A stretch of 58,993 nucleotides of DNA from positions 1-58,993 of the forward strand of contig CAXUUL010000028.1 of NCBI GenBank assembly GCA_964255285.1, in the 5' to 3' direction. Below, piece after piece: positions 31,376-52,684 of the stretch (positions are counted from its first letter, which is position 1; the number at the start of each line of letters is the position of its first letter). This DNA comes from Ionaspis alba. Taxonomy: Eukaryota. The translations under genes were made by a program, and so were the position numbers. Under the pieces are notes generated by a model, which saw nothing but the letters and a program-made list of their open reading frames with translations, was not told the DNA's origin and ran no database searches.

Positions 31376-32099
31376 TCATGCACAGTCGCTGTCGCATCTC
31401 TAGGGCGTACTATCTGAAGCGGACGGAACATTCGGCGTCACGTTGTTTGCACGGCACCAAATTATGAGCATTGGGCGGCGAATCCTGCAATCTCTCTAGC
31501 GACTCACTTGTCGCCCATATTAACATGTATTCGTGGAATCTATGCATAGTTCTACACGGGTCTAAGACATTGATAGTGCTCGCACTTTCCTACCACTTTA
31601 TCGTGATCTATACCGCTTGCATCTCCACTCTTCAATCTGCTCTACTGACACTAATTCATTTAGCCAAGCCAGAAGATCCTCGTATTTCACCGCGGACTTT
31701 GAAGGTCATTGCAGGCAGAGGTGGAGCTTAGGCCAACAACCGCATTGCTGGGGCAGAACGTGGAACCAATACATGAACAAAGGTGTGTACAATATATTGT
31801 CTTTGTGGACAAAGTCAGTGCTGGGAAGCAACGGGAACAACGAGAACAATGATCCACGTCTATATTCTCCTTTTCAACCCATGAGCCACCCTATTCGTTT
31901 CCTTTGTTCTTTGAAATAAAACAATGTCGTTGTACAAGCTATATCATGGCAAATCCTTCCATTGTTTGAATTCTAGAGGACCCTCATACAAGGATCTAAG
32001 TGGTTTGTCAAGCTTGTGGAATTATCGATCTATTCAAACACTGACTCGACTTCGATGCATCACTTGACATTGGCTTCACCATTTCTGCAGGCCCCAGAA

Positions 32100-33035
32100 A
32101 TGGCTGACGAGTCCGATTATACATCCGTCAAGCCGCTCGGAGGAGGTGGTCAAGGGTCATGTCTACTGGTACGTCGAAGCAAAGACCAGCAGCTTTTCGT
32201 GTACAAGACTCTAAAATATCCAGAGCTGTTCCGTGGCAAAGCACGCGAGGCTAGCATCATGGAGATGCTACTGGAATGCAATCGTATCACCAAGTACTTC
32301 CAGTCCTACAAATGGCCTGAGCACTCACAGATCATTTACGAATTCTGCGATGCTGGAGACCTCGGGAAGATTATAGAGAAGTACGCCTATGAAGATCGCA
32401 TCATCCCGGAAGCTTTCGTCTGGCACGTCTTCATTCAGCTTGCTGAGGCCTTGGCTTTCATCCATTACGGCTATGGCGCATCTTCCGAGAAACGAAAGAA
32501 CTGGACGCGGATCATTCACCGAGACCTCAAGCCCGAAAACGTCTTCCTCAAGTGGCGACCTGGCTCTACCCGCTACGACAGCTACCCAGACGTCAAATTA
32601 GGAGACTTCGGTTTGGCCGGTGTCCCTTCCGATCCCGACCACAAGGACAGTACCTACTTAGGCTCATACATGTGGCAGGGGCCCGAGATCCCCTTACTCA
32701 CGGCCAAGGGTGACATTTGGAGTCTCGGCGCTATCATCCATGCCATGGCTTACGAGGGAGACCCCCCTATCGACCAACTGCCCAAGGCGTGGAAGAACAC
32801 CAAGGAGAACAGGGCGTTATGGTCAAAAAATCCGACGGCAAGGGCCCCTAAGCCCATCGATGCTATATACTCAACCCAACTTTCCAAGTGGGTAGATACC
32901 ACCTTGGAGCTAGATCCCTCGGACAGAATCACAAGCTTACAGCTGGCAGAGGAGCTGTACCCGGTGGCGAAAAAGAACAAGCACAAACTCTTTACTGCCC
33001 TAAAGCGCTGGTCTATGCCCATTAGGGAGGAGTAG
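32100..33035 (+). CDS. Intronless NimA/NEK-like Ser/Thr protein kinase (kinase domain only)
   Basis: LGGGGQG, FVYK, EFCDAGDL, IPEAFVWHVFIQLAEALAFIHYG, IIHRDLKPENVFL, KLGDFGLA, WQGPE, DIWSLG. Confidence 0.88.
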   Translation: MADESDYTSVKPLGGGGQGSCLLVRRSKDQQLFVYKTLKYPELFRGKAREASIMEMLLECNRITKYFQSYKWPEHSQIIYEFCDAGDLGKIIEKYAYEDRIIPEAFVWHVFIQLAEALAFIHYGYGASSEKRKNWTRIIHRDLKPENVFLKWRPGSTRYDSYPDVKLGDFGLAGVPSDPDHKDSTYLGSYMWQGPEIPLLTAKGDIWSLGAIIHAMAYEGDPPIDQLPKAWKNTKENRALWSKNPTARAPKPIDAIYSTQLSKWVDTTLELDPSDRITSLQLAEELYPVAKKNKHKLFTALKRWSMPIREE

Positions 33036-33419: not shown

Positions 33420-34023
33420 TTAAACCTCCTGACCATAGTCCTGCCAGCCACCATCCCAGCTTAGATCTTTCATCAAACCCGCTTCAAACATACCGTCCGC
33501 CTCGTCGGTTCCATCAATAACACTCGATTCGCTACTGACCATCTCTTGCTTGATGCCGATAACAGCGTTGGTATCGACGGCCCTCTTCTTTGTCGGGGTC
33601 AAGCTTTTGGTGACACGGCCTGAGATAACTCCACTAACCTTCTTCGGGGAGGTGCGAGGCTTGCGAGATTTTCTGGGAGTGCTGCATTCACTCTTGACAC
33701 CGCTATTACCGCGCGGAGGTGCTTGAGGAGCAACTCCGGATTCCACCTCAGACTTCATCTTGGCCGCTTCGGCCCGAATCTTTCGAAACTGTCCTTCAAT
33801 CGCATCGTAAGTTGTGCCTTCGCCGTAATAGGTCGCGATTCTTCGGTAGTCAAGCTGAATCATGAGTTAACTTCATCCCAGCAGGGGCTTAACGCAAAGG
33901 GCAACAAGCGAATGTGCGACAATGGTCGGACGGGGCGCCGCGGCTTACCTTTTTGTCGATGAGAGCCGCAATAAGCGCTGCCATCAAGCGCTCTTTGGCT
34001 TCAATGGTATTCCAGCGAACCAT
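33420..34023 (-). CDS. Myb/SANT-like cluster gene 1
   Basis: Exons 34023-33949 and 33854-33420: MVRWNTIEAKERLMAALIAALIDKK|LDYRRIATYYGEGTTYDAIEGQFRKIRAEA..TPRK..SPKK..IKQE. Confidence 0.82.
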
Positions 34024-35437
34024 TTTGACGATTGGGGTTGAAATGAGCTGAGGGTTGTGGAACCAAATTTGGTGAGCAGAACGAGCACTGTGGTAATGAG
34101 GAGGATGTCAGTTTTGAGATCAATATGATGTTGATGAGCGAACAGATATACCTGCTACAAAGAATCCCTATAGCTCGAAGGGATCAAATGTGTGATGGAG
34201 TGGGTAGGTCTCTGAAGAGAACGGGAAATGGAGACAGGAAATCGTGAGCTCAAAATATTTTCAACCCAAAATCTGACTTATACGTTTCGTTTTCTCAAAA
34301 ATTATATCACTCCAATCGTCTGTGTAGACGGAAAATTCAAAGAACACACTAAGTGCAGAGTTGTGAAGACCCTTGAATGGATGAGATTTAGTCCTTACAT
34401 TCCCCACGAACCAGGCAGACCAGGCCGCTTCATATAGCCACTTCGTACCTTCACACCCAGCCAATACATTGTCTTCGCAATCCTCCTACTTCAGTCCCCG
34501 CCTTTCGCAGTGTAGATCCGGCATATTATGACTCATTTCAATTGTTCCTAGTCCTTGTTACCAGCCATCCGAATTCAAAGGATCACAAATGGCCGGTATC
34601 GATGAAGCAAATCCCGGCCCTCGACCCTCATTCGTCAAATTCCAGATGCACCTCGAAACTGGTCGTCGAGCCGCTATGTTAGTTCCTCTAGCTTCCCAGC
34701 TGTTCCTGCAGCTCCCCGTTCTCTTCATGCAAGCACTCTATCCCCTTCTCCAGCACCTCTCATTGCCCTTTGTTACCTTCTCTCTCTGAGCCTCTATTGT
34801 GAAGTAGCAAATAGAATAACATCATCGCGAATCATTGCAGACGTGCCTACCCGGACAAAGTAGTCAAGTACACGCCCGTGCACCCCAACCACGGCATTTG
34901 CTGTTTGTGTAGTCTTGTACCGAAGCAGAAGGGGCTGTATCGGGGCTTCGAATAAGCGTAGGTACGCGTAGCGCGGCGCTACGCGGTGGCTTATCGAGAC
35001 GCATGCACTTTACGCGTCGATCCCTGCAATGCGGGCGCGTGGGATAAGACCAGGGCAGCCAACGGCTCTCACGTCGCGGCTCGGAAGGCGGGTCATGAAC
35101 TGGGTCTTCGGTCAAACTTTGAGATTACACGTAAATTACAATAGAATACAGCAGTCGGGCAATAGACAGTTTGGCTTTCGAGAAGGTCATCAATTTATTG
35201 TATTGGGGCAAAATTCTCTTGCACCAAAGGACCAGTCTGAAGTAACGTGAGTAGAGCCGACATAACATTGAGCTAGGTGGCTTCGACATCGCTAGATTGC
35301 GACGGTGGAAGAGCTTCTACAAAGGCCCAGGCCACACGACACTCGACGAAGAACCAACACCGAGAATCTCGTTCACTCACCTTCTGTGTAGACAAGAGCG
35401 GTGGAATATGCTGGACACTGGCGTCCACTCCGCTGCG

Positions 35438-36137
35438 CTAACCTGTCATTTCACCCTCTTCATCTCCTACCTCTTCTCCTCCTTCGAACCCGGCATCCGA
35501 CATGGCAGAATCCTCGCTCGAAGCACCGTTGCCATTTCCGAAGATGTTCTCGCCATCCTCACCAATCGCGTCAGCCATGTGCACGAAAGGATCGTTGACG
35601 TAATCATAGTTCTTCGCCATTGTACTGGCACGTCGAGGAGAAGAACGCTTAGTCGTCGCCGAGCTCTGGCTGTCAGATGCTTCAAAAGCAGCCCTGTTCG
35701 TCTTCCCAGCCGGAGTCTCTGGCGGAGTGACGAGTTTGTCGTCATTCTCTGCTTCGCAGTCGATGTCAGGCTCTTGCTTGACCAAAGGCTTGCTGATCTT
35801 TTTGACAGGCCGAGCAGAGACCTTCATCGGCGCGGCACGCTTCGTCCCTGCAGCAGCTACTGCAATGCCATTGCAATCCTTGAACTTCTTTTTCGATAAC
35901 ATGATGTGGGAGATAATGGCTTTGCCCGGAACATTTGGCCCTGTGATGCTTTAGTAAATCGAGTTTTGAATGGCGTTTAGTGGCATGAGGTGCTCAAGGA
36001 TGTTTTGTCTCACCCATTGCCTTGGCGATCTGGTCAGCCACGGTGCCGTCAATCGAGATATTCCCGTAATAGAGCAGGGCATGCAGCATCTTGACATCGT
36101 TTGTCTCGGTCCACACGATGGACTTGACACCAGGCAT
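35438..36137 (-). CDS. Myb/SANT-like cluster gene 2 (divergent)
   Basis: Exons 36137-36014 and 35940-35438: MPGVKSIVWTETNDVKMLHALLYYG..QIAKAMG|PNVPGKAIISHIMLSKKKF..VKQE..acidic tail. A further terminal intron is possible. Confidence 0.72.
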
Positions 36138-37882
36138 GTCGATGGGTTCCCTGGAACGTTGCTCAGTTGAAGAACGATGAAACGAAATGAAGTAGACAAG
36201 GTAGGTATAAAATGGATAGTCCGGCAGAGTCAATATGGAAGTGATAGAAAGACCAGAGCTATAGATTGTAGGCGGGTGTGTGGCACTGAAGACAATGCGA
36301 GTTTGGATGATGGGTTTCGTCTCAATATGGCAGATGAATAGATGACGACAAATTAGGGTAATGACTTTTACTCACTGTGGAATTTGATTTGTGTGAAACG
36401 CGCTTGTGAAAGACGGAACCTGTAGACGAAGATCTTGCGAAGATGTAAGTCAAGGACATCATCTTGTAGTGTCAGTGACACACATACCTCAAACCAGTGT
36501 CTCAAACCAGTTGTTGTTGAATATTGTACGAGGAAAGCGTGGACTGATGAAAGTGAAGTTCAAGGTTGAGGTCGAAGAAGCCAAAGGTAAGCAAGAGACA
36601 GGTGGCTAGGGCTTGGCCTCTTCGTCAGGCTTACCAGAGGTTCACACAACTTCGGACCTTGGAATATGATCGATCGAATAGAGGATTGTCACAGCATATA
36701 CGCCCAGTCATTCATTCAACAGGACTTTTGTGGTTCATTGAGCAGCCTGTCCACTGCATGTGGGTAATGACATGATATCGAAAGCTATCGCATATCCTTC
36801 GCAGAACTGACAGGCAGTAATAGATTCCTTCCAATATGTGACAGGAAAGCTCCTATGAAACACACCGGATTTAGACGAAGGTGTTTGCCATCATTTTATG
36901 TGATACTAGATACTGGACGATTTCACTTCAGCCCACGGAGCAAGCACAGGTATGCAGCTGTCTCTTCTTTCGAAGACGGGCTAAGATGAACGGAGGGAAA
37001 CATGTAAAGAACAGTACAGCCATGTATTTCATTACTGGGACCGGGACAAAAGTAAGGTGGTGCGACGCTCAAATACTGCGATCGTACTATCACACCGCTC
37101 TTTCTCCTCGGGCATCCTGCAATTTCCTCATCGAAGGCTGGTGCAGGGGATGGTATAATGGTGGCCTCGTCATGAAGGTGGGGTTGACACAAAGTTGTAA
37201 AGTCAACAATGTGGTTGAAGCAAAGTTTGCCAGCTTGTCGTAAGCGAGCGGATATGCAGCTAGTGCAGCTAGTGGTAGCGCGAATATACAAAATGCCCTG
37301 ATTCTCTAGGTTCCTGGAACAAGCTGGGTATGGACAAGCAGCTACCAGAGTATGAAATAGTTTGCCTTAGCGGTGGTCTCGGGCTTTCGAGTATAGTGGT
37401 TGCCGCTGGTTAGGATTGGCTCATCACGCCGACCTTGAGCCATATCTGCTGCAGATACACGACACCAGAATGTGCTTCGTCACAGGAGTCCTTGCAATGT
37501 GATCTATCTGTCCTGCTATCAGCTACATCGGCTATCCTTTTGAGCCTATGTCTGCATCCAGTTTGTTGGCAAGGAAGTGCCTCATCTGCACCACAAGATC
37601 CTTGAATACGCGATTTCGTGATTTCTTTTTGCATTAGCCCTAACAGTCTCTGTGATCCACCTCGATCTTTCGATCATCTCTTCTCTACCTAAGTTCTCTC
37701 AGACCTGCACTACACGGTCCCCAGATTTCAAGCCAGCTTGAGTTTCGCCAAGGTTTCGTGAAGATACTCCGAGTATTCAGTATCTTCTTCCGACAATTTC
37801 CTTCCAATCACAACAGACATCTGATCTCAATCTCAAGAACCTCATAGCTATCTTCCTACAGTCTAACAACTTCTCCATCAGC

Positions 37883-38688
37883 ATGCCTATCAAATGGACA
37901 GCCGATAATGATCAGCTTGTATGTTTCCCACCCTACATGTTCTAAGCATCTTTCCTAAATCTTCACATCAACTTTAATCGAACCTGAACTCTCTTCTACC
38001 TGTTTCTCCATCACCTTCCACAAATAAATACTGCTTACTGTCTTCCCTTATCATTCACTATCTCTTTGTGCTGACGGCATTCAGCTTCTCCTCAAGATCC
38101 TCGAGACGTCAGCTATCAATGCGAACGTCAAAGCGATTGCCGAAGCCTGGCGTACGTCCGTCCTGTCTTTCCCTTTGCCCTTCGTGTTCCTCCTCTCCTC
38201 TATAACAGTCCAAATAATGTCTCCACTAACGCGATACAGCAACCGACAAGGGAGAACGACCAACTCCTCGTGCTGTATCCGAGCGCCTGGTCAAAATTCG
38301 GCAACTAGCCAAAGCGAACGGTGCTGGACACTTCACAGTCACTTCTGCAAATGCTGTTAAGCCATCTGGTCCGCGCACGCCGCGCAAACCACGTGTCAAG
38401 AAGTCGGAAGAGAGTCGGGACGCAAGCGACACTCCGGCGACTGATACTAGCGGTGGTAAACGCAAACGCACCAACGGCCTCGTGGTAAAGACGGAGAAGG
38501 TGGACTACGATAGTAGCGCTGAAGATGCGGTTGGTAGTCCACAGGGGACTGGGGAGGGCAAACAGGGTTTTGATGCTGATGCACAAGAGTCGCCGACCAA
38601 AAAATTGAAAGGTCTTTGTGTTGGAGCTGTCAGTGGTGGTAACAGCGAAGATAGCCTCGTTTATGATGAAGAAGAGGAAGAAGTCTAG
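37883..38688 (+). CDS. Myb/SANT-like cluster gene 3
   Basis: Exons 37883-37918, 38085-38151, 38240-38688: MPIKWTADNDQL|LLLKILETSAINANVKAIAEAW|PTDKGERPTPRAVSERLVKIRQLA..TPRK..KRKR..VKTE..DEEEEEV. Confidence 0.85.
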
Positions 38689-39039
38689 TTTTCTAGCTAG
38701 TCTGATACCATGTGACTCGAACAGACTCGTGGAAGTGGTTGTCCTAATAATTCAGGGCTGGGTCTACTGCTTCGTGCCTCTACATAGGTTCTTCGGGGGC
38801 GGCAAAGTACATAGCACTAAGGAGACATCAGGAATCGTTTAATGTGGTCGTCATGTTCCACTTGTACCAGTCGTAGACTGTGCTATTGATTTGACGCTGA
38901 GGAGAAGACACTATCAAGATTCAGAGGATCTTTAGATAGCTACACATATCCCCCACGCCAAGGTAGACCTTGCGATCATGATGAAAGGGGTTTTAGGAGC
39001 CCATTGCACTGATTGACATTGAAGGTTGTAGACTATGGC

Positions 39040-39583
39040 TTAGTCCTTCTCGTCTTCAATCTTGACTTCATTCCCGTCAATCTTGGTCTTCTTGCTCGGG
39101 GTCAACTTGAACTCGTCGTCGTCCAGTTCTTCTCCCGATGTTTCCCATTTTTTAGCTCCGTTCACTCCACGCTTCGTCCCTCTGGGTGCACTCGCCTCGC
39201 TAGCGTTGACGGGTTTCTTAGGAGACAGTGTGACTCTGCCATCCGCGATTCCTTTGAGCTTAGCGATTCTATGCTTGATCGATTTCGCCGTTACACCTGT
39301 AAACATGTCAGATAGCTGAAATGGTTGCCTTTGAGATTGGGAACAGAAAAATCACCCATGTCTGCACCTAGTCCCTCATAGTCGAGTTTGACGTCGTGGC
39401 GGCGAAGAACACTGGCGAACAGCTAATCAGGGAGTCAGTCAAGCTCCTATTCCGATTAGATCCAGTGGGCGGAAGCCGGGAACCCGGACTTCGAGTGAGC
39501 TAGAGTAAAGTGTGCCTGTCATGGTGATCTGAGGGAGAACTGGATCGTTTTACCTTTGCGTCAGCTTCCGAGTTCCACTGCAT
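39040..39583 (-). CDS. Myb/SANT-like cluster gene 4
   Basis: Exons 39583-39554, 39422-39356, 39296-39040: MQWNSEADAK|LFASVLRRHDVKLDYEGLGADMG|VTAKSIKHRIAKLKG..SPKK..TPSKK..VKIE. Confidence 0.83.
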
Positions 39584-40695
39584 CTTGAATTCGAGATGGT
39601 CTTGATGGTTTGAATAAGGTTGTAAGAGACAGGAAATGTTGATCGTTTTGTACTTGAGATCTTGTTGCAGTGGTGGATGTTGTGTGATCTTGAGTTAGAG
39701 GGAGGGCTGATGATTTAAAAAAAAGAAGACTTGCCTCAGCAAATTGGGATTCATGGTCGTTCATAGCACCAGGGGTGAAGTCGACTCACTTCGCGCCGGC
39801 TTATCGACTTCTATTCCAGGAAACCGTGAGCTTCACAATTATTCTGTGTATTGATAACGATTCTTCTCTTACCTTCTACGCGACGACTGGGTGATGTCCC
39901 TTCCAACGTAAACAACATCACCTACTAGGGACCATGAATGCTACAACCACGATGAGAAACAGATCAAGATGTCATGTTTGCTACAAATTGCTAGGATGTT
40001 CACATCGAATACGCAAGCACAACGAGGTCTGACGAGGCAAACAAATGTGTAGAACAAGGAGCCTAGCGCCCAAATCCTTCGAGGATATCCATAAAGGATT
40101 GTCGGTCCTATCGAAAGCTCAGAAAGTGACATAAAATCACGACGCCATTGACTCACTGCTGCACGTTTCCTAGCGTATTTGAGTTTGCAGATACCCATGA
40201 GCGTCCCGGCAGCACTCGCACTCCGAAGCACGTCTCCGTTCGAGTCATGAAGACGTTGGATGCTCAACGGGTCTGCATCTTAGGCACAGAAGGATTCATC
40301 CCTAATAGCGAATAGTCTTGCGCTCTGATCCTCCTATCTCATACCGAGCAGAGCAACGAGCCGAGAAAGATCTGAGCCACGTGGAAGCACGTTCCCAGAT
40401 TTAGGACTTTAGGAGCATATATTACGGCAGAAGCAAGATCGGGATGAGAGAATGGATCTCGTTGATTCTAGACAATGACCGAGGTCAAGAATAGTTCTCC
40501 CCCAGTCCGAAGTAATCCGCTACCCAGAGTCATGACCAGAGACAAAAGCTGTAAATATTGGATTGTGATTAGCAGCCTCTGCGAAATTGCACCAGACTTT
40601 TTGCCCCTGGCAGCCTGCCTTGAGTAGCTGAGTTTGAACCAGCTTCGCGAATATCTAAGGGTCATAGAACCTGTCTTTAGTTAGAGGAACAAGGT

Positions 40696-41241
40696 TCAAA
40701 GCGCGAGAAGAAATTTATACGAGTCCAAGATTTCATCGGCATTGCCATCTCCGAATTCGTTCTCGATCTTAAACTTGCGAGCTTGGGATGCACCGTCATT
40801 CTCCCTCTTGCTCTTCTTGGGCAGAGGACTCCCAGCGGTAATATGATCAGGTTCCTCATCATCCACGCAGGCTTCAGGCTCTGCAACCTTCTTGCGTTTC
40901 CCTCCTGACTTGGTCGCTTTGCCGGAGGCTGGCGTGGAAGCAGGGTCTTTCACTTCGGAAGTCATAGGAGCACCATGCATAACCGCACTTGCTTGCTTGA
41001 GCTTGCGGAAATGCTGGCTAGACTATGCGTTAGCGAATCAACTCAGAAAAGGTTGTACTGCCCTCAAATACGGGTTCGCAGTACGATGATCGAGAGAGCA
41101 GAGCACATACCGACAAGCCTGAGCCGTGACTTCTTTTCCCATCATTTCTGAGATCTTCTCCCACGAGGTCGTCTTGAGATCGGCAAAAGTGATGATGCAA
41201 AGTAAGAGCTTACGCTCTGACACCTCATTCCACTTCGGCAT
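40696..41241 (-). CDS. Myb/SANT-like cluster gene 5
   Basis: Exons 41241-41111 and 41017-40696: MPKWNEVSERKLLLCIITFADLKTTSWEKISEMMGKEVTAQACR|QHFRKLKQ..GKRKK..FKIE. Confidence 0.85.
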
Positions 41242-42229
41242 GGTTGGAACAGGATGCTAGAAATTCTGAGGTAAGCCTTTGGTGGATTGGTTTCCTATTG
41301 AGTGAGTGAAGCAGAGGTGATGATCAAAATTCTGGAAGATTAGAGAAGTTGATGGAGCAAAGCGAGACACTAAAGCTCGAATAGATGCAACGATGATCGA
41401 CGATTCACAGACCGAGTTCTTGATTGTGAGTGTATGCAATACACTAGAGTCTCAATAACAACAGCAATGCAAGCTCATGTCTACTCCCCACTAACGGAAC
41501 ATACAGGCAAAACACGAAAGACTCCAATAGCATAACTCCTCGCCAGCAGAACAGCACTACCTTCATTACTACCGCTCGTGATCACAATCTGGATACACTT
41601 ATCAGCTTGCTATGGTCGCTACGGCCTTGATTCGAAGCCCCGCCAATTGTGCCTATGCTCGAAGCTTCCACAAGTAATCTCCCGGGCCGACATAGCATGT
41701 TGCAGCCATATGTTAGATCAATAAAGCTGCTCAATAATAGCATCACCATGCCTCTTCACTAATGTGACACAACAGTAGTGGAGTACTGAGCGAGAATTAC
41801 ATGGGAACGCTCATGTTTTCCCCTGCAGCGTCGGTAAGGAGCGAGAGGCTAGCCTCTTCGGTACCCTCCTGTATCTTAGCGCCGGCTTCTTTTTCAACCT
41901 TTGTCGAGCAAACACTACTACTGTAGCAGACCGATCTGTGCGGAAAGATAACTAGAGGCTTTTTGATGCAGCAACGCATCCGTGGGGGCCGACGTGGCTT
42001 CTTGGTCTTTCAAGATTGCATCAAAGAAGAATTTAGTCGTTCATATGGGCAATATAATGGTGGCCTCAATCACCCAGGATCACTTGGAGCAAGCATCGAT
42101 AGAACAGGGCAGCTACTGTAGAGCCTAGTACACCCTGTGCAAGAATTCTTGCAGCCCATGCTTCCGAGATAACCTGGTTCACTCTTATTATTTAGTTTCT
42201 TCCCCCTCAAGATCGGACCTTCCTTCGCG

Positions 42230-42868
42230 ATGGCAAGCTTACGCAGAAGTAACGCCATGCAGTCGGATACCGCAACATCCAGGTTTCTCTATACCATCTT
42301 GAAGCAGCTGGACCACAAATCAGTAAATCGAATCTATCCATATGCTTTCAATGAGCGGCTGACCCTTGCCTAGATTGATTGGAATTCAGTTGCCTCCGAT
42401 CTTGACATCACCAATGGGCACGCTGCCCGCATGCGATTTTCACGCTTCAGACAGCATATGGAAGGCATACCACCCACACCAAGAAAGCCGCGATCCGAGG
42501 GACGTCCGAGAAAGAAAGCGAAGACTGGGTTGAGCCTCAAGGATGAGTTGAAAGGCGAAAGCGATTTGCCGGATTTCACAGACGAGATCCCTGTCAAGTT
42601 TGAGCCAATAGTCAAGCCAGAGCCTGCCATCAAGGAGGAGCCAATAGACGACTTCTATAGTGATAGAGGAAGTGGACCTCCAGCTGCTATGTTTGCCGAT
42701 ATTGCCCTCTCGCAAGGGGACATTTTATTGGATGCAAAACCCACATCGTCTATCTACGCGATGGCTGCTACAAATCTATCCCACCATTCCGGGGACCAAA
42801 GCCAGGAATATGAACGTATCAACGGTACAGACGCAGAGATTAAGATGGAACCTAGTCAGAACAACTAG
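42230..42868 (+). CDS. Myb/SANT-like cluster gene 6
   Basis: Exons 42230-42322 and 42374-42868: ..SRFLYTILKQLDHKS|IDWNSVASDLDITNGHAARMRFSRFRQHMEG..TPRKPR..GRPRKK..VKFE.VKPE.IKEE..IKME. Confidence 0.88.
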
Positions 42869-43947
42869 ATTCGGCGACAGTGGTGTCGACGTCGAGAAGA
42901 TAGGAGAGGTAGCTTTACATAGCCTGCACAATTGACATTATGCACTCACCCTTAGATATCCCGAACTTTCCTCATTTCTTATTCGAATTAGGGTTGCGAG
43001 AAGCTCGCATCGGCGGCTTTCTTCTACTCATCACACAGACCGGATAGTGTCTAGAGTAGCTGGTCTCTTGCTGTATTTGTGTAGATAACGCTCAGAACAA
43101 ATGCAGTAGTCTCCACCACAAGTGGCAGCACACTAACTGGCTGAGTCAGTTCTACTCTTATACTTCTATTCTTACGCAAGTCGTTGGGCATTTCAACAAA
43201 ATCGAGTAGTGCGGGACGCGGCGAACAGTTCTCGCAAGACAAGGCAACTCGGTGGCCGTCATAGTGGCATTGCGTCTTACCCTGGCTCTGTGTGCAAAAG
43301 TTATGATAAGAGCTGCAAGTATACTTGAATCGGTCACTACAAGAGATGGACAGGTACAACACCGCGTCGACTGTCCGCTATTATCTGGGGTGTTCCCTCT
43401 ATGGTTTCCTGAAGACCCAGACACAGCGGAGTCACAGCTAACGCCTCCAGGAATGCCTTTCCCCACCAGTAATGCACAAAGCTGGTCGTTCATCTCATCC
43501 CTGCCAATGTACTCCTTGTGGAGCAAATATGACAATCTTCACTCGAGGCTTTTGGACAATGCGTTTATAAAGCCGGTCTCCCCAAAGCTCTGTACTCAGA
43601 AATACACCTGGTGTGATCAGAAGTCTTCACGTGTCTAGGCGAGCCCTATAACGCTAACGCGGGAGGAGGTGAATGAGGATATATCGTCTCATTCCAACTA
43701 CAACTTTCCCCCAAACAACTCGTTCTTGCACTCACTCGGGCTCTCTCGTCAGTTTGCACTGACACGCTTAGACTTTACATCACCGCTCCTCTCAACTTAC
43801 TAGGTCTCAGATCCTCAGAGCGCTTGTCCAGCTTCCATCCGACATTCTGATCCATCCTCGACTTCGAACTCGATAGCAACTCACCGTACAGTGTAGGCAT
43901 CATATAGGTCTGGCTTGTAACAGGACTGACAGCTATCAGACTCCGCA

Positions 43948-44703
43948 ATGTCCACTCCGACCAAATTAGGTCTCTCCGACCGTGACGGCGAATTGCTCTT
44001 CTATGCTATTAAGTTTCTCGACCCTAAACCCAAGGTACGCTCCTTTCTCGCTTCAAGGTCTTGTGGTGCCCCACAAACGTGCTTCACACTTTTACCACAA
44101 GAACACTGTCTCGGCTCTTATACAGTTAAGAAGGATCGGAGTCTACTACACCAGACGCAGACCCATTCTAAACTTACTTTCTGGCCACTTTTACATGTCT
44201 AGTCCTGCTGCTACTCAATGCTTCTTATCATATCATCTTTCATTCCAAGTCCGCCCACAGGCTTACTTAAAACGCCGCAGTTCGACTGGAAGAATGTCGC
44301 TTCCGTCATGGGCTTTAAGAACGCCAGCGTGGCTTCGACGCGCTTCCGCCAGGTCTTGAAAAAGTTTGAGCCACTTTCCGGGGACATCGTGAATGGCTCT
44401 CCAGTTACCGCTACTCCCAAAACCAAGAAGCGCAAGACGGATGACTCCGAAGCTTCCAGTGGAGGATCCAGCAAAGCTTCGGCTCGCAAGCGTGGCAGGA
44501 AGGCCACAGACAAAGCTTCTGCTGCCCAAGAATCAGCTGTTAAGCAGGAAGTTGATGACGAGGAGGCGGAGACTGAGATCCTAGGAAATGGGAACGGAGA
44601 TGTGGGAGGGGAATCCGAGGGAGACGAATCGGAGAAGGGTGAAGGACAGGATAACATTCTTGGAGATATGCAAGCAGAATATGAAGCCGCGATGGAGGAC
44701 TGA
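43948..44703 (+). CDS. Myb/SANT-like cluster gene 7
   Basis: Exons 43948-44034 and 44281-44703: MSTPTKLGLSDRDGELLFYAIKFLDPKPK|FDWKNVASVMGFKNASVASTRFRQVLKKF..KKRK..RKRGRK..VKQE..acidic tail. Confidence 0.85.
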
Positions 44704-45316
44704 AGACAACTCCGTTCGTTTGCCGGCTGCTGGTTGACCAATGCCATCGGTCGTCCTTGAGACTTGCCTGACTGATTGTTCAGCCGTGCCTTGTATGTAG
44801 CCGTTGCAGACGGAATGCCAAGGAGCAGTAGGGATTTGGGAACCACCATCATGGAAGAGACTACACTCGTATACCATGCCCAACGAGCTTCCAGATAGAT
44901 GTACTAGTGGATGCAGCGGTATTGTCATGCATCGATAAGCTTCTTGAAGGAAACTGAGGTAGTGATGCAGGATTGGACCAACCCAGTGCCTGTTTCTCAT
45001 GAACTCTAGATTCAATCTTGTGATCACTACTGGAGCTCTGGAGAAGTGAGGTGTGCGCTCAAGTACCACCCTAGTAGGTCAACCATGTGATTTACCCCGG
45101 CCAACCTTTTGTCATTCTTGAACCTCTTCCACTCACAACCACCTTAGTAACCATCTTCACGATTCATACGAATTGTGCACATACATGCAGCAGCGAAGAA
45201 AACAAGTCAACGTACACGGTGAGTGGAAGATTTAGAGGAACTTTGGTTTGAGGTGAAGCACCACTAATATGCGCAATGAAGCAGTAAAAGCAGGAAAGCA
45301 ACTCCCAACAGCGACC

Positions 45317-45819
45317 ATGGCAACGAAGAATCATCCATTCACAGACGCGGAGACCAGACTCATCATTCTGTGCTTCAAACATATGAACGGTACTCCAGAT
45401 GTAAGTTCACTCGATTTTCCCCAAGATTCTCAATCCAATGCCCCAGGTTCATGATATGACTGTACTCTTGTACTCACCCTAAATCTCTTGCATAGATCGA
45501 TTTCGACAAAGTGGCTGAGGACTACGGCTACAAAGACGCCAAGGTCGCTCGGTCAAAGTTCTCTATTGCCAAAGGTAAATGCAAGGCGTCTGGCAGCGTT
45601 GCTGAAGCGTCCACGGCTGTTGTCGCAAGCACAAAACGTAAAGCTACCGGAGATGGCAAGCCTGCGGGAGCCAAGCGTGGGAGGAAGCACAAACTTGAAG
45701 CGCTCGATGCTGTCAACGACGAGGAAGATGGGACGAAAGGCGAAGATGAGTCAACGATTAAAGGCGAGGAAGGCAATGATGGTGGAAAGCAAAGTGGTGC
45801 TAATAGTCAGGACAACTAA
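45317..45819 (+). CDS. Myb/SANT-like cluster gene 8
   Basis: Exons 45317-45400 and 45496-45819: MATKNHPFTDAETRLIILCFKHMNGTPD|IDFDKVAEDYGYKDAKVARSKFSIAKGK..KRK..KRGRK..IKGE. Confidence 0.83.
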
Positions 45820-46502
45820 GGCAGTCAGCATGGGGACTAGGTATTCGATGAGATGGCAATGACCTCGATGAAGCCAAGACTTCTGCACAGCTCATAGGGA
45901 CGCTCGCTGTTGGTGACGGTTGTCCGGACTGCTCCTATCCCTCGTCAGCTAAGGCCTTTCCAACGCTCTTGTCAAGATAGTGAAATTTAGGCCATGGTTG
46001 AAAGTAAGGTTCCACGAATCAATATCATATGAGCCTTCCACTGGCTGAATTAAAGCATTGCTTGCTTGTGTATGTGACATGCCAGAGGCCTTTGCGCAGC
46101 TAGTCTGCACCAGCTGAACCAAACATGCAGACCCGAGTCATTCAGTTAGTCCATTGATGCAATCGAACGGCTTGTTGTCCACCTTTCTTAGAGGCTTTGT
46201 ACGCACAACCGCGAGCATCCTGCAATCTCAAGCACGATTCTCTCTATTGAAAACTGCGTTTCCGCAGGATCCTGCACTTCACCTTCCATTGACCAGATTG
46301 ACGACGTCTGAAGTCCACTACTTGCCCTAGTCATTCAACTCTATAAGTCCTGACAAGACTCCATGACTTTTCAACCTCCGTACGTCCTGTCAACTTGAAC
46401 ACCAGACACCTCAAGTCATCATCTTTTCACCATCGGTCACGATCTCCCATACCAGAACCTCAACTACCCTCAGCTTTTGCTTCATCTTAGCTGCGCTTCA
46501 TC

Positions 46503-47245
46503 ATGGGCAGGCTTAACAATGATGAGCAGTTCAAGTTCCTCATCTCTTGCATTCGTTGGTCAAACAATGGCAAGGTAAGTGCTATCAGAATACCTCATGC
46601 ATGACATGCAATTCATATCAGCAGGTCGACTTTGGAGAAGTCGCAAAGGAATGCAAGATCGTGACTAAAGGTGCAGCGTAAGTGTTCAAGTAATTCTCAA
46701 CACCGGTGTCCAGCGCGTGTTAGGTACGATCTGCAGCAGCTAATACTGGTTCGACTGACAGAGCGAAGCGCTACGAACGTATGATGAAAGCACACGGCAT
46801 CCACCAACCAGCTTCATCTCGCGACTCAGTAGTCCCACCTCTTCGTCGCAAAGAAGGAGTGACTTCCACTCCATCCAAGAAACGCAAGCATCAGCAATTC
46901 AGCTCCGAGTGCGGGTCCGCTGTTGATGACGACGAAGGACTAGGGAATGTCAAAGACGAGATCGTTTACCCCGAATCCGGGACTTCGTTGGTTAAAGAGG
47001 AGTTAGGTCTCCACAACAGCAATACAGACATGATGAACTATCCTTGGCTCTATGGCACAGGTCGATCAAACACGAACCTGAGTAATGATAACGATGCTTT
47101 CAACGATTTTATCGTCTCGGGTGCTTTTGAGCCGATCAATACTCAACCCGGTTATGGGACCGGACTGTCTCAGGCCAATGCTGAGGAAAGTGTCAGGCTT
47201 GCTGAAGGAGGTGAAATGCAGGAAAGTATTCTCATCCTCGACTGA
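46503..47245 (+). CDS. Myb/SANT-like cluster gene 9
   Basis: Exons 46503-46574, 46625-46677, 46762-47245: MGRLNNDEQFKFLISCIRWSNNGK|VDFGEVAKECKIVTKGAA|AKRYERMMKAHG..TPSKKRK..VKDE..VKEE..ESILILD. Confidence 0.88.
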
Positions 47246-48215
47246 GCCATGCCAATTCTGGTGGGCCCGTTAACTAGGTCGATTCAACTAGAGGCCGCGA
47301 GCCCAGTCACTCTGTGGTTTGATCTATATGCTTCTCTGGAGTTTTCCGTCCCGATTCAGACATAAGTGCAGCTCGTATTTACTCTTCTGTTTTCTGGTCT
47401 CTCTTTTACTCTGCAGAGACATTGGGATTTTGGCCTCTCTCTTGCGATGGAAGACAATCGTCTTGATCCTGTACATAGACCTCAGAGAATGATGTTGCCG
47501 ATCTGCCACGTACGCGCACATTTAGAAGCTCAAAACGTAAAGATTTTAAGAAGACGTGCTTTCTCTATGACCTCTGTGAAAGTGGCTACTCGTAGAAAAT
47601 CCGTGGACTTTGTCAAATCATGACCCAACGTGGTCATCACGTCTCTGCTAGTCTCCGACTGCCTAGAACAGATTATTGTCGTTGAAATTGGCATTCGGTC
47701 GACACGCGAAGCGCGGACCAGTCTAACGCCAAACGAATATTTACAGGGTACTCAATTAAGCGAATAGGGAGCATTGTCCTATATCAATGAGAAGCTTCGA
47801 GATCTAAAACTGATGTAAAGATTGAAGTTGTGATGAATGAATTGTGCTTCCTCATATGTTGAAAACTCTACTGCTTCGAACCAGACTTCACCCTCAACAC
47901 TGGACCTTGGACTTCGATCTCGCTTCATCGATCCCGCATCTTCCACAACGTGCCCACGTTGCTCAACATCTAATCAGGAACAAATTCGAACTCTTTGAAT
48001 ACGTAAGTGAAACATTTATTGTCATCGTTATAACTACTACAACATCCTCTTTTTATGAGTTAAGTTTCGATCATCCTCGTTGCAGAGCACCGACTTCTAA
48101 AATACCAGATCAGAGCTGAGCATCACGGAGAATTACAGACCACAGTCTCTTGTCTCTTTCCATCTCCAACATCTTTCAAAGCTCACTCGGACTTGTATGA
48201 TCTGCAACCACGAAA

Positions 48216-48906
48216 ATGGCTGCCAAGATGACATGGGACGGTAAGCATTCTCACTGTACTATTGATGAATGATCATTTCTCTTGCTTTGAACAATCTCGA
48301 GGACGTCTCTCAAAGACTTGACACTGCAGTATCTTCGACGATCTCACCGACCATGTATTCAAAAGAAGCATCCTACCTCCCTTATGCACTACTGATCTTG
48401 TGACTGGGCGTTGTTTGCTAACATTATGGTCAGGCGCTGCCGATCAACAGCTTCTCCTCAACATTTTGGACGAACACACGATCTCAGTCAACTTCGAGGG
48501 TGTAGCCGCTCGTCTTGGATGCACTCCCCGCGCAGTCCAAGAACGCCTCAAGAAGCTCAAGAAGATGGCATCCGAACAAGCCGGCGGCTCGGCGCTCGCT
48601 CCCGTCACGCCAACTAAGCCTCTAGCTAAAAAGAAAACTGGCGAGGACGACACTTCTTCTTCAGCTACCAAGAAGCGCAAAGTCGCGACGCCGAAGTCAG
48701 CCAAGGCTGTCAATAGCACCAAAGCTAGCAAAGCTGTGACGGGTACTGCCGCAGATACCAGTGATGCGGGCCAGGATGCTACCGAAATGGCTCAAGGGAT
48801 CAAGCGTGAGCGTGAAGATGACAGTCATGGTGTTTTGTACGGATTGGAGGTAGGCATGTGCTCTAGTTTTCGTACTTATAGATGCGAAGTTACTAACTCA
48901 TACTGA
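48216..48906 (+). CDS. Myb/SANT-like cluster gene 10
   Basis: Exons 48216-48240 and from 48434: MAAKMTWDG|AADQQLLLNILDEHTISVNFEGVAARLGCTPRAVQERLKKLKK..TPTK..KKRK..IKRE. 3' end uncertain: a possible intron 48850-48908 would move the stop to about 48977. Confidence 0.83.
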
Positions 48907-50243
48907 AGATGCTGGGGAAGCTTAATCTCGGTGGTAATCCTCCGCCCGGGCCTGGATCTGGGTGCGTTGTCTCCTAAACGTAGATCAACAACGGATCTGC
49001 GACCTGTAGGCTTGAAGAAACGCGACAATGGAAAGAAGGAAGTTGTCTAGCTTCTGCCCCTCCCGGTCTTGAAGGCGCGGAATGTCGTTGCGTCCATGGG
49101 AACACTCCGCTCTCCGACATCTGTATTCTAGTAAGTTACGTTGCCTGAAGGCTCGACTTATGTTGGTGGTTCCATGAAATGAGCATAGCAATGCAATATT
49201 GTCATGGTTGAGACTCCCCCACAAAGTTGTCCTCCAATCAGATCAATAAAGGTGGACCAGAAGCAAGCTGCCATAACCTAGCAAAGCCTATAATGAATGT
49301 TGTAGAGTCGCAGATTCTTGTTTCTAGTCGAGCCTGTTTCCGGTAAGCGTTTCTGAATATATAGCTATCAGTAGGAAATAGCTGGTAGGGCTGGACTGTG
49401 TTGCTAAATGCGAACGTCAATGTTGACCCTCCGAGCATCTCAACCATCCTCTTTGCTCCCTATCCCTCAGCACAAAGCTCGAGTCTTTTGCATCAAAGTG
49501 AGATTGCCAAAGTCGCCCCACCTTGAATATTCACCTACTCCTGTCATATAGCCGAGGCCGGCTTCTGTTGGACCTGTCGCCTCGGCGATATCTGTGAATA
49601 AATTAAGGTCTGCGAATAACCTCGTCCAACAACGACGTCCACAAAAGTGACTAATAGTAGCGACAACTTCCACAACTTACAAGTAGGTAGTTTGACTCAC
49701 TTTTCCTTCACCTCTCCACCTTTCTCGGTCGTTGTCATCAACGGCTTGTATCAGACGACGTCAACAGACCTTCGTCCGTCAGTGTCAACAGGTATGTTGC
49801 AGATCATACCTCCCTCCTTACCGACCACAACGTAATTCCTCTCACTTCCCGATGACTACTCCTCTCCAATGCGAACAATGCTCTTCCCAGCTTCTTCAAT
49901 GCAGCGCTCTTTTGGTTCTTCCACTACCCAATCACCAGTTCGACTGGTCGTACATGGCATAGTGTGGCTGGGTTATGCTATTGTCGAGGACACTGACAGT
50001 ATCGCGGACTTGCGCATCAATTCCCAACATAGGAAATTTTGGTGCTTTTCCTTTGTCCTTGAAGCACAACTCTTCACTCTCGAGAGCACATCTTGCTTCC
50101 CTTCTTCCCTTCCTTACATCCCTTTTTGCTTACATCTGTCAGAAAAGGCTTGGCTGACCGCAAGCACGTCAACAGACTCGAACCGCACAGTCCAATCCTG
50201 AACTTCGAACACAGAGAAACTTTGCCAGAACCACCACTGCATC

Positions 50244-52684
50244 ATGGGGAGACAACGGGCTCCACGTCCGAAGACTCGTAAATTGGTTCGTTGGACTGGT
50301 ACGTCGTCTCCCTGATTCACGAATATAGCACTTGACTCTTTTCTCCAAGCCTCCGGGCGGCCGCTGCCTTCGTGGGTGGAGACCTGGTCCTCCAATTCCG
50401 TATTGGCTACGCACCAGGAAAGATTCACGATGGCGAGGTTATTGGCGAGTGGCTAATGCCTGCAAACGTTGCTAACATAGCCTTAGAAGATATGAATATC
50501 CAGCTTCTGCTAGGCGCGCAGTCGGTCTGTAATCAAGACAACATCAAGATTCCTTGGGAGAAGGTGGCCCGCGGCATCGATCCTAACATCACCAGCGGAG
50601 CTGTAATCCAACATCTGGCTAAGATTCGCCTGCGCCGTGAACTGGCGGGTGAACCAGTTCCCCAGCCATTGAAGCGTGGGGGTGGCAGGTCCAATGTACC
50701 CAAGGTCAGCAGTCCCGCGGGTGGTCGGATCGGCAGCAAGCGAGCAAGGGTCGGCAAAGCAGCTCTGTCCACGGCAACAATGTCTAATGAAGATGAGGAG
50801 GAAGAGGATTTCGATGTCGACAGAGCTTCTGATCCAGAGGAGTCCTTCGGCGAGACCCGTTCCAAACGTGTCAAGCCTGGTGGAGCGTCAGCCTCGAAGA
50901 AGAACATGAAGGACGAGTCTGAGCACGAGGACGAGGAAGAACGCGAGACTAAAGAGAAAGGCAAAGTAATGGTGGTTGGAACCAAGGCAAATCGGAAAAT
51001 CACGACTGTTAGCAAGAAAGCCAAATCTAAGTCTGGACGAGTCAAGGACGAAGTATCACCGGACATACCCGTTGTGACTACCGAGGAGCGTGCTGCTCGT
51101 CGCTCTAGTGTCAACTATTCCAAACTCAATGGCGAAGACTCGGACTCTTCAGATGACTCGAATGACTCGTATGACCCTGACGAGACATACACTGGTGCAG
51201 GGGCAGCGTGCTTCAAACTTGAAAAGACCAAGAAGGAGTCGGACAGTGGCAACATCGACAAGGAAGACGAAAATTCTGAGAGTGCGATGGACGATGAAGA
51301 TGAAGATGGCTCCCAAGCCGCGTCTCACGGCGATGACATCAAGAACGACGACGACGAGGACGAAGAAGACGAAGAGCATAAGACGAGTGACAAGGAGCAG
51401 AACAAGCAGAGCGTTGTCCTTCATCTCGGTAGGAGCGCTGAAGCAATGGGACTTCTTCAAAACCTGGAGAACACATCAGCCATCTCCCAAAGCCGTGATG
51501 GATATGCAAACATGAATGTGTATAGTCAACCAAACCCCGCCTCATACTACTCTGGCAATGGCAATAGTCGGGTCGAATTGGGTGGTCATGGTAGCCTTGG
51601 TACCGCGGACAATTACTCCTCAAGCCACAATGGTATGGCCGACATGGTTGCGTACAGCAATGGTGGATTTGACATAAACCTTCTCGGAAAAAACTATAGC
51701 CAGTACCCTCAGCAGAAGTATTACGCACACAATCTATACGTACCGTCGGGTACAGGAAACACAACCGATTCGTTCCAGAGCACAACTGGAGTAGGTTCTG
51801 GACAATCACAGCAAGTTCCTACATCTCCTACTGGTCTTGGCTATAGCCAAGCTCAGCAATTCGTACCAGCCCTAAATACCATGGGATATGACCCAACGCA
51901 CCAAGGCGTTCTGTCAAATGTTGTCACAGGATCTGCGTCAGCTCAGTACAACACGCAGCCTGTTCTTCACCAAGGATATCCTTCTACTTACCAGACTTTT
52001 GCCACCCACAATGGTATTCTTCCAGGGTATGGGGAGTCAGCATAACCACCGTTCGACTTCCTAGCTAACACAGTAAATAGTGCATATCAGCAGAGTCTCC
52101 AATACCCAGCTGGTCTAACTCAAGGACATTGTACAATTCAACCGAACTTTCAACCCTCAGTGGGCCAGGCCTTTATGTCGAATCAGTCGAACTTCCTGCC
52201 TCCCACCCCACTCACAGGCAGTGGTGGATTTGCTGATGGCGTTCATAATGGGAACTTTGTTGAGCAATCTTCAGGATATGCTGGCAACGCTCAACACCAT
52301 GGCCCGACTACTCCAAGCACTCCTCTGACTGCTCGTGTTGCAAGCTTCCCTGGGACTCCGTACGTCACCACCGCGCAACCAAGTACGTCATTGGGTGGTC
52401 ATGTTGAAAACCTCGCTGGCTTTCAGCATGTCAACGGGATGCAGAATCAGTACTACATGCAGCCTGACAATAGCCCTGCTAGCGCTCATGACACCAACGA
52501 CACGATGAATGGAAATGTGGCTTTGCGTAATGGACGTGACCCTGTTCTGAACAATGTTAGTTCGGGGGAGGAGACCGACTTGTCTGGCTTTGACCCTGGC
52601 GATGACCAGCTCCTTAGTGCAGAAGAATTAGGCATGTTCCTGGATGGGCACGACTTTGATGTCACCTCTGGCTGGATGGGCTAA
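50244..52684 (+). CDS. Myb/SANT-like cluster gene 11 (large; acidic and Q/S/G/Y-rich tail)
   Basis: Exons 50244-50298, ~50487-52026, 52081-52684: MGRQRAPRPKTRKLVRWT|EDMNIQLLLGAQSVCNQDNIKIPWEKVARGIDPNITSGAVIQHLAKIRLRR. D/E tracts, VKDE, low-complexity tail ending LGMFLDGHDFDVTSGWMG. Confidence 0.82.

Follow-up and report, generated by a model that had tools for sequence, protein, structure and literature searches.

Eleven neighbouring Myb-like genes of an uncharacterised Pfam family form an ancient and apparently undescribed array in Ionaspis alba

The window analysed here, a stretch of 58,993 nucleotides of contig CAXUUL010000028.1 from the lichen-type fungus Ionaspis alba, contains eleven consecutive genes, G1-G11, at positions 33420-52684, between a protein kinase gene and HSP60 (Table 1). 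They had been described in an initial annotation, and models rebuilt at the stated coordinates and strands (- - + - - + + + + + +) reproduced the peptides quoted for G3, G4, G5 and G10. The array includes two strand switches and two divergent promoter pairs. Among its neighbours, the kinase (Pkinase) and UFD1 are identified by Pfam matches, and HSP60 and cofilin from ORF translations only. As had been claimed, the block holds no other gene that we could find (0 tRNAs, and 4/4 intergenic ORFs tested without a Pfam match), and the eleven genes show no similarity to one another at the DNA level (0 non-self blastn HSPs). A family HMM applied at one fixed threshold gave 11 matches, all within the 19.5-kb cluster, and 0 elsewhere in the window (39.5 kb). 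All eleven products follow the same plan, with an N-terminal three-helix domain of ~50 residues, then a basic stretch, and then an acidic disordered tail.

Table 1. Spliced models of the eleven array genes, with positions in the window.
Gene	Length (aa)	Exons	Span	Strand	Remarks
G1	169	34023..33949, 33854..33420	33420..34023	-	P0262 orthologue ungapped across junction
G2	208	36137..36014, 35940..35438	35438..36137	-	
G3	183	37883..37918, 38085..38151, 38240..38688	37883..38688	+	
G4	117	39583..39554, 39422..39356, 39296..39040	39040..39583	-	
G5	150	41241..41111, 41017..40696	40696..41241	-	Divergent from G6
G6	195	42230..42322, 42374..42868	42230..42868	+	Best-conserved member
G7	169	43948..44034, 44281..44703	43948..44703	+	246-nt intron
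G8	135	45317..45400, 45496..45819	45317..45819	+	
G9	202	46503..46574, 46625..46677, 46762..47245	46503..47245	+	
G10	169	48216..48240, 48434..48849, 48909..48977	48216..48977	+	Last intron predicted
G11	734	50244..50298, 50481..52026, 52081..52684	50244..52684	+	Last intron predicted

The spliced models were built by hand from the genomic sequence, and their introns are canonical, as previously proposed: 16/16 are GT..AG, 50-246 nt in length, with branch-site-like CTRAY/TTAAC motifs close to the 3' end. Comparison with orthologues covered the junctions of all introns but the 3' introns of G10 and G11; 11 of the 16 junctions fell in ungapped alignment (±4 residues) and three adjoined a loop indel. 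The junction of G7 aligns without gaps to P0210, a model of another genome in which G7- and G8-like genes are fused. Both junctions of G9 do so to P0185 from Xylographa pallens, with which G9 has 121/202 identical residues. Intron positions and phases held in common define subgroups of array genes: both introns agree in G3 and G4, and one position and phase is common to G10 and G11. The more likely start of G10 would lie four codons earlier than modelled, as in its Acarospora orthologue P0008; for G8, an in-frame ATG at 45269 is a possible alternative start. The contention that ORF callers miss these genes is borne out by prokaryote-style calls of the contig, which are truncated (P0001, P0018 and P0143), but eukaryotic annotations of related genomes do call the orthologues, sometimes as fusions.

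The eleven proteins had been said to open with one common pattern, and an HMM of their N-termini had been proposed as a check. In leave-one-out tests, an HMM of ten of the genes was used to score the eleventh among 1820 sequences, made up of that gene, 300 shuffles and 1519 six-frame ORFs that lie outside the cluster. Every gene ranked 1/1820, with E values from 2e-9 (G5) to 0.063 (G2, the weakest member), the next weakest being G9 (0.009), G11 (0.002) and G1 (0.0016); G3 reached 7e-4, G8 2.7e-4, G7 8e-6 and G4 2e-7. The pattern is nevertheless not uniform, as the first tryptophan of the domain is absent in G6-G9 and the aromatic residue at helix 2 in G2 and G3. By phmmer, G3 is linked to G10, and so is G4, at 36 bits. 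Comparison by hhalign with a G6+G9+G10 reference gave 97.6-99.7% for the G1, G2, G3, G4, G5, G11 and G7/8 groups (98.9% for G1, 97.6% for G2, 99.7% for G3 and 98.8% for G11), scores that may be inflated by the pre-alignment of all inputs to one family HMM.

This N-terminal domain is the one catalogued in Pfam as PF22980 (Myb_DNA-bind_8, curated cut-off 27 bits). The window genes were scanned against it as single exons, and G6 passes directly, with 41.4 bits for its exon 2 alone (profile positions 20-49); the scores for G7 (16.8 bits), G8 (14.8), G9 (12.2) and G10 (22.7) are likewise those of single exons and not of spliced products. G7, G9 and G10 join the family through orthologue-type proteins, given that P0210 scores 45.7 bits on its G7-like domain, the full-length G9-type protein P0185 scores 88.6 bits, and named G10 orthologues carry a precomputed match; no passing protein was seen for G8 itself. 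Unlike these, G1-G5, G8 and G11 fall below the cut-off together with most of their relatives, and leave-one-out and profile-profile tests, their only links to PF22980, support them as remote members of the same family. No PF22980 match was found in the exons of G1, G2, G3, G4, G5 and G11, and the best related proteins, of G3-type (P0178, 37% identical to G3; 25.7 bits), G5-type (21.0) and G4-type (17.5), all score below 27 bits. Relatives of G1-, G2- and G11-type gave no PF22980 score; neither the G1 exon nor its orthologue P0262 has a Pfam match, and the same is true of the G11 exon and seven G11-like proteins. An eighth G11-like protein, P0139, does reach 16.9 bits, but with a second domain that is G4/G10-like.

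A profile made from the window exons retrieved 333 representatives at E<=1e-3, and a scan of 60 of these gave 43 with a match to PF22980 and 8 classical Myb proteins with several repeats. Homologues were found for G6 (136, including Onygenales and Eurotiales) and G9 (148), and the PF22980 family is widespread in Pezizomycotina. Our literature search found no paper naming PF22980 or six of its members, and the initial annotation knew of no functional description of such a cluster. PF22980 does have its Pfam entry, however, and its members appear in UniRef as 'Myb-like DNA-binding domain-containing protein', which makes the family an uncharacterised but not an unknown one.

The assertion that a Myb/SANT fold is established was too strong, although profile matches and predicted fold support a Myb-like domain. 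The classical Myb repeat PF00249 (cut-off 24.4 bits) matched no window exon, and orthologues scored 13.4-16.5 bits, below the cut-off. AF2 models of P0008, the G10 orthologue (helices 9-22, 29-36 and 40-59; block-mean pLDDT 70-92), and of P0250, a G2 orthologue (helices 11-24, 31-41 and 47-64; block-mean pLDDT 84-94), both predict three helices and a disordered tail, the helices forming a compact bundle with a helix-turn-helix. The structure search that had been suggested gave a divided answer. For P0250, the top VIA match was the RAD MYB domain (Z 7.9, rmsd 3.5, 63 aligned), followed by many Myb/SANT/GARP entries and many homeodomains (the latter at Z 6.8-7.3), but the P0008 model had no structural match above Z 3.6, its best being sigma region 4. 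The top Foldseek matches were the Myb-like domains of ARR1 and ZZZ3 (prob 0.96-0.98 but E 0.23), and among PDB sequences the window profile found nothing below E 0.27. The predicted-fold scores thus tie Myb domains and homeodomains at middling values and do not separate them. With classical Myb/SANT domains and plant single-repeat MYB/GARP/trihelix proteins, the array domain would have in common a homeodomain-like fold of three helices and a similar spacing of the aromatic or hydrophobic positions in the core. Unlike classical Myb proteins, the array proteins carry a single repeat, at the very N-terminus.

In a tree of the domain, each array gene falls in its own clade (support 0.82-0.996), with G7 and G8 in one common clade. 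Each is also represented by separate orthologues in other species and by a strongly conserved third helix of its own. Homologues elsewhere are mostly clustered: among 38 G6-anchored loci of at least 9 kb, many of them near-duplicates of one another, at least two members were found in 35, at least four in 23 and at least six in 17, and G6 was alone in three. Order and strand are conserved in metagenome loci of several other fungi, one of them Eurotiomycete-like. It reads G1 and G2 (-), G3 (+), a family member (-), then G6, G9 and G11 (+) in L001; G3 (+), a family member (-), G5 (-), then G6, G8, G9 and G10 (+) in L021; and G3 (+), two family members (-), then G6, a family member and G9 (+) in L024, for which the closest named G6 homologue is from Thermoascus crustaceus (69%). 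A minus-strand family member stands directly upstream of G6 in most loci of at least 9 kb, and G8-like matches occupy the expected position in L019-L021. In 14 of the 15 named genomes present in both match lists, the orthologues of G6 and G9 are 1-8 locus tags apart; the exception is Pleopsidium flavum, where the tags are far apart but the contigs measure only 1.4-6.3 kb. Public gene models, moreover, fuse neighbours (G6+G7/8+G9, G7+G8, G9+G10 and G10+G11). These maps support the view that order and orientation are kept in other fungi of Lecanoromycetes-like type and, as far as a G3...G9 core is concerned, in one Eurotiomycete-like fungus. Distantly related fungi have the same genes arranged in the same order, and the array is therefore old, as the initial annotation had it; by these sequence comparisons, the duplications are shown to be older than the divergence of the sampled fungal lineages. 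We thus regard G1-G11 as a real, ancient and apparently undescribed array, the clustered arrangement being apparently absent from the description of PF22980. Like Hox and other arrays of transcription factor paralogs, it consists of tandem genes with a homeodomain-like fold, each with its own orthologues, whose order and orientation are kept across deep divergences according to locus maps, locus-tag spacing and fused models. Unlike Hox, it is built from a different domain family, has switches of strand and, in some lineages, has been rearranged or truncated in part; a Hox-like role in development or the sexual cycle, as had been suggested, is hypothetical.

The tails are enriched in psi-K-x-D/E motifs, with 22 seen against 3.9 expected, in all 11 genes, a count that 0 of 5000 shuffles reached. 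Six of the motifs are in G6, and several motifs, as in G6, are flanked by prolines. Among database relatives, 280 of 298 carry the motif (90 expected), with a total of 971 against 108 expected. This enrichment in SUMO-consensus motifs is reported here for the first time, and the sites, consensus matches in disordered tails, are putative. They recall SUMO-regulated transcription factors, which carry psi-K-x-E motifs of the 'synergy control' type, a likeness of consensus only. NLS-like K-K/R-x-K/R motifs are present in 10/11 tails, within the basic stretch, and the long tail of G11 is acidic and then rich in Q/N/S/G/Y.

The explanation that we consider probable as a whole, though far from certain, is that of an ancient tandem array of eleven paralogous genes with the following mode of action. 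The proteins would be nuclear, and the net-positive domain, judging from motifs and charge, could contact DNA or nucleosomal DNA via helix 3, whose distinct sequences would direct each paralog to different targets. The acidic tail could recruit or repel partners, and sumoylation of the tail may tune activity, as its motifs suggest. The array would be held together by selection on shared regulation, either through the two divergent promoter pairs or through one chromatin domain, and not by chance. No upstream k-mer common to the array genes rose above the window-derived null, and co-regulation is therefore unsupported.

Other readings have to be weighed against this one. Splice sites picked to fit the motif could have turned sequences that are not genes, or not family members, into some of the eleven. 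The models were indeed built by hand, G2, G9, G11 and G1 are weak in the leave-one-out tests, and the 3' introns of G10 and G11 rest on prediction. This possibility is very improbable and largely refuted by the independent annotations of other genomes, which match the spliced N-termini of our models, by tblastn matches in other fungi, which break at the same exon borders, by the separate clades of orthologues and by the three helices predicted for the G2-type orthologue. It is also conceivable, but in our view unlikely, that the domains are SANT-like binders of proteins or histone tails and not DNA binders, and that the proteins serve chromatin complexes as small subunits of an adaptor or chaperone type. 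SANT domains that bind histones tend to be acidic, and the array domain has a net charge of +1 to +5, with a helix 3 rich in K/R in most members; furthermore, DNA-bound chains of Myb, GARP or homeodomain proteins make up most of the structural matches. Such adaptors would nonetheless agree with the presence of SANT domains (CoREST, RSC subunits, ZZZ3) among those matches, with the long acidic tails, which would suit binding to basic histones, and with the lack of a sequence match to any solved DNA-binding Myb.

A further alternative accepts the array as real and regards its persistence as neutral. The array would be a relic of tandem duplication in a gene-dense region where rearrangement is slow; its order would not be under selection, and its members would not be functionally linked. 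The missing promoter k-mer fits such a relic, as do signs of erosion and rearrangement: L010/L013 have the G1-G3 block in inverted orientation, L024 lacks G10 and G11 after G9, and in L018, L027 and L069 no other member accompanies G6. UFD1 is also found near G6 in L061 and L072, which hints at wider regional synteny. We nevertheless find a neutral relic rather improbable. Between classes of Pezizomycotina, genes have usually been reshuffled (mesosynteny), a general tendency and not a background rate for these genomes. In the array, six to eight members keep their order and strand between fungi with orthologues of only ~35-50% identity, and G6 has remained linked to G9 in named Lecanoromycetes, Onygenales and Geoglossum.

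Between the kinase and the HSP60-type gene, the window carries eleven spliced gene models, numbered G1 to G11 from left to right and oriented - - + - - + + + + + +, which our analysis shows to be an old collinear array of paralogs belonging to a Myb-like family that is catalogued yet uncharacterised. The window resembles contigs of filamentous ascomycetes; among named fungi, its proteins have their nearest homologues in Xylographa, Trapelia, Schaereria and Acarospora, which are lichen-forming Lecanoromycetes. The initial annotation had proposed eleven genes with canonical introns and no other gene among them, and this description held: the models fit at the coordinates and orientation proposed, all 16 introns are GT..AG and measure 50-246 nt, a tRNA search of the cluster found none, and none of the four intergenic ORFs tested matched any Pfam family. 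Across eleven of the 16 splice junctions the alignment with a related protein of another genome runs without a gap, three adjoin a loop-length difference, and the other two belong to the predicted 3' introns of G10 and G11; the exon borders of the window genes are also the break points of tblastn matches in other fungi. A low-complexity ORF of 213 aa lies antisense to G7; it appears to be a side effect of the skewed composition of the G7 tail rather than a gene. Sequencing run X2, compared with the cluster, comes from the same organism at low depth, and informative variants or joints were not seen over the cluster. One short X2 contig, loose at both ends, shows 5-6 differences in helix 3 of G10, the most conserved part, and is probably the G10 orthologue of another fungus in the same sample.

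Coordinates of the array, its flanks and individual features in the window and in metagenome loci
Feature	Sequence	Position	Strand	Place	Basis
UFD1	window	30494-31375		upstream flank	Pfam
Protein kinase	window	32055-33035		upstream flank	Pfam
G1-G11	window	33420-52684		array	spliced models
G2 C-terminal conserved stretch	window	35438-35650	-	G2	
ORF of 213 aa	window	44211-44852	-	antisense to G7	
Differences in X2 contig	window	48504-48570		G10 helix 3	
G11 tail	window	51200-52684	+	G11	
HSP60-type gene	window	about 54.5-56.3 kb		downstream flank	translation reading only
Cofilin-like ORF	window	57.1 kb		downstream flank	translation reading only
G5-like gene pair	L024	5790-6571	-	upstream of G6	
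G11-type tandem segment	L010	14659-15100	+		
UFD1	L061	18898-19659	-		
UFD1	L072	15235-16122	-		

At the DNA level the eleven genes show no similarity to one another, as had been claimed (0 non-self HSPs with blastn at word size 7), and pairwise phmmer searches link only G1-G5, G3-G10-G4 and G6-G7-G8, so that a profile-based test of the common N-terminal pattern was needed. An HMM from G6 orthologues alone was too narrow for testing the other members. For each gene, an HMM of the remaining ten was instead run over 1820 sequences: the gene's own product, 1519 six-frame ORFs taken outside the cluster, and 300 shuffles. All eleven ranked first (E 2e-9 to 0.063), with G2, G9, G11 and G1 scoring weakest. 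The HMM of all eleven gave no match with E below 1 elsewhere in the window, and a broader family HMM at one fixed threshold gave 11 matches in the cluster against 0 in the other 39.5 kb.

The domain is that of Pfam PF22980 (Myb_DNA-bind_8) and its remote relatives. When the window genes were scanned as single exons against its cut-off of 27 bits, exon 2 of G6 alone reached 41.4 bits, G10, G7, G8 and G9 obtained 22.7, 16.8, 14.8 and 12.2 bits, and the exons of G1-G5 and G11 gave no score. Among full-length relatives, the G9-type protein P0185 of Xylographa pallens scored 88.6 bits and the G7+G8-like P0210 45.7 bits, and G10 orthologues have a precomputed match; G3-, G5- and G4-type relatives fall just below the cut-off (25.7, 21.0 and 17.5 bits), and G1-, G2- and G11-type relatives gave no match. 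Profile-profile comparison of the below-cut-off groups and the G7/G8 group with a reference from the G6, G9 and G10 clades gave probabilities of 97.6-99.7%, with the caveat that a single family HMM had served to align all inputs beforehand. Profile A2, built exclusively from exons of the window and searched against 1.84 billion proteins, retrieved 333 representatives of clusters at 50% identity with E<=1e-3; of the 60 scanned, 43 matched PF22980, eight were classical multi-repeat Myb proteins and nine were neither, three of these nine having other or generic HTH or LysM matches and six no family. The family is large and occurs widely across Pezizomycotina, in pathogens and industrial moulds among others. 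The expectation that such a cluster had received no functional description was borne out by literature searches by family name, member locus tags and the topic of Myb synteny, which found no description of family or array; neither is mentioned in the term-matched passages of PMC8396895 and PMC2871058.

The attribution to a Myb/SANT fold could be kept only in part. AlphaFold2 models of two orthologues, P0008 (G10-type, from Acarospora) and P0250 (G2-type, G2 being the weakest member), both have three N-terminal helices followed by disorder, in agreement with a three-helix fold. For the more confident P0250 model, the best structural match is the RAD MYB domain (Z 7.9, rmsd 3.5, 63 residues aligned), and the Myb-like domains of ARR1 and ZZZ3 are on top in Foldseek, but at E 0.23. 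After RAD come, at Z 5.9-7.3, some twenty Myb/SANT/GARP/trihelix rows and about as many homeodomain rows, as classed by title, and with the P0008 model Foldseek and VIA returned only generic HTH rows, with a best Z of 3.6. Since Myb-type and homeodomain structures score alike, and the window profile, searched against PDB sequences, had no match with E under 0.27, we call the predicted fold homeodomain-like; the label 'Myb-like' is based mainly on profile cross-matches rather than on structure.

That the paralogs are old was corroborated by a domain tree of 325 sequences, in which each window gene groups with proteins from other species in a separate clade (local support 0.82-0.996), with the exception of G7 and G8, which share one clade. 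Homologues of G6 occur in Onygenales and Eurotiales, those of G9 in Leotiomycetes and Xylariales, and those of G10 in Cryomyces. Intron positions are common to subsets of the genes: before helix 2 in phase 0 (G1, G6, G7, G8 and G9), after helix 2 in phase 1 (G2, G3 and G4), within helix 1 in phase 0 (G3 and G4) and just after the tryptophan in phase 1 (G10 and G11).

The array has also been kept together. Scanning metagenome contigs with the G6 alignment gave 80 loci, 38 of them of at least 9 kb; of these, G6 is accompanied by one or more other family members in 35 and stands without them in three; 23 loci hold four or more members and 17 hold six or more. Many of the loci are near-duplicates, with about nine distinct sequence groups having at least four members. 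Order and strand agree with the window; in L010 and L013 the G1-G3 block is inverted. Writing fam for a member without gene assignment, L001-L008 read G1- G2- G3+ fam- G6+ G9+ G11+, plus a weak G7-like match; L021 reads G3+ fam- G5- G6+ G8+ G9+ G10+; L032 and L035 read G1+ fam- G6+ G9+ G10+ G11+; and L024 and L026, whose nearest named G6 homologue is that of Thermoascus crustaceus (69%), read G3+ fam- fam- G6+ fam+ G9+, and a large gene outside the family comes next. Named genomes back this independently: G6 and G9 locus tags lie 1-8 apart on equal-length contigs in 14 of the 15 present in both match lists. For example, the distance is 3, as in the window, in four (three Xylographa species and Trapelia), 2 in four Onygenales and 8 in Geoglossum; the exception is Pleopsidium flavum, with contigs of only 1.4-6.3 kb. 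In Pycnora, the G9 type adjoins the G10 type.

Individual loci show further features. UFD1 lies 5-9 kb from G6 in the more distant loci L061 and L072, where otherwise just one or two upstream family members are left, which hints at wider regional synteny. In L010, a G11-type helix 2-3 segment is present in three tandem copies over about 450 bp, which may reflect internal duplication local to that fungus or an error of assembly. The Eurotiomycete-like locus L024 has two adjacent G5-like genes, and the database model P0162 has two G5-like domains.

In each protein the domain, whose net charge is +1 to +5, is followed by a low-complexity tail that is first basic and then acidic. K-K/R-x-K/R motifs occur in ten of the eleven tails, and psi-K-x-D/E, the consensus for SUMO conjugation, occurs in all eleven, 22 times against 3.9 expected from composition-preserving shuffles; none of 5000 shuffles attained this total, nor presence in all eleven. 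Among database relatives, which are phylogenetically non-independent, the motif is found in 280 of 298 against 90 expected, with 971 motifs against 108. The C-terminus of G2 has a stretch conserved with P0250, beginning N-D-P-F-V and continuing as an acidic glycine-rich segment, so that in this tail at least conservation is not limited to the domain but extends to a second element. The final ~350 residues of G11 are rich in Q/N/S/G/Y, much as prion-like or activation regions are, and have no Pfam match.

Gene order among filamentous ascomycete classes is usually scrambled; when as many as eleven regulator-like paralogs keep both order and orientation, some constraint that has no known explanation is therefore indicated. 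The proteins would be nuclear, with a paralog-specific third helix that may contact DNA or chromatin, sumoylation may modulate them, and selection would hold the array together. A bolder reading would make the array a fungal counterpart of a Hox-type regulatory cluster, in which eleven ancient Myb-like DNA-binding paralogs with their own recognition helices would be fixed in order by one shared regulatory landscape and switched on coordinately or sequentially in a developmental programme, either the sexual cycle or the development of thallus or conidia, and in which sumoylation of the tails would be a common off-switch; we consider this improbable. Co-regulation finds no backing in any common promoter word: the most widely shared 7-mer lies upstream of 6 of the eleven genes and the most widely shared 8-mer upstream of 4, both within the null. 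The array is a testable entry to the function of a catalogued, uncharacterised domain family, and work on it would reveal if clusters of transcription-factor paralogs are in use among fungi.

Public genomes systematically mis-annotate these genes. Neighbours are fused in public gene models (G6+G7/8+G9, G7+G8, G9+G10 and G10+G11), the window contig's own calls P0001, P0018 and P0143 are truncated, unspliced ORFs, and P0138, P0139, P0141, P0157 and P0210 each hold two or three adjoining family members in one protein model.
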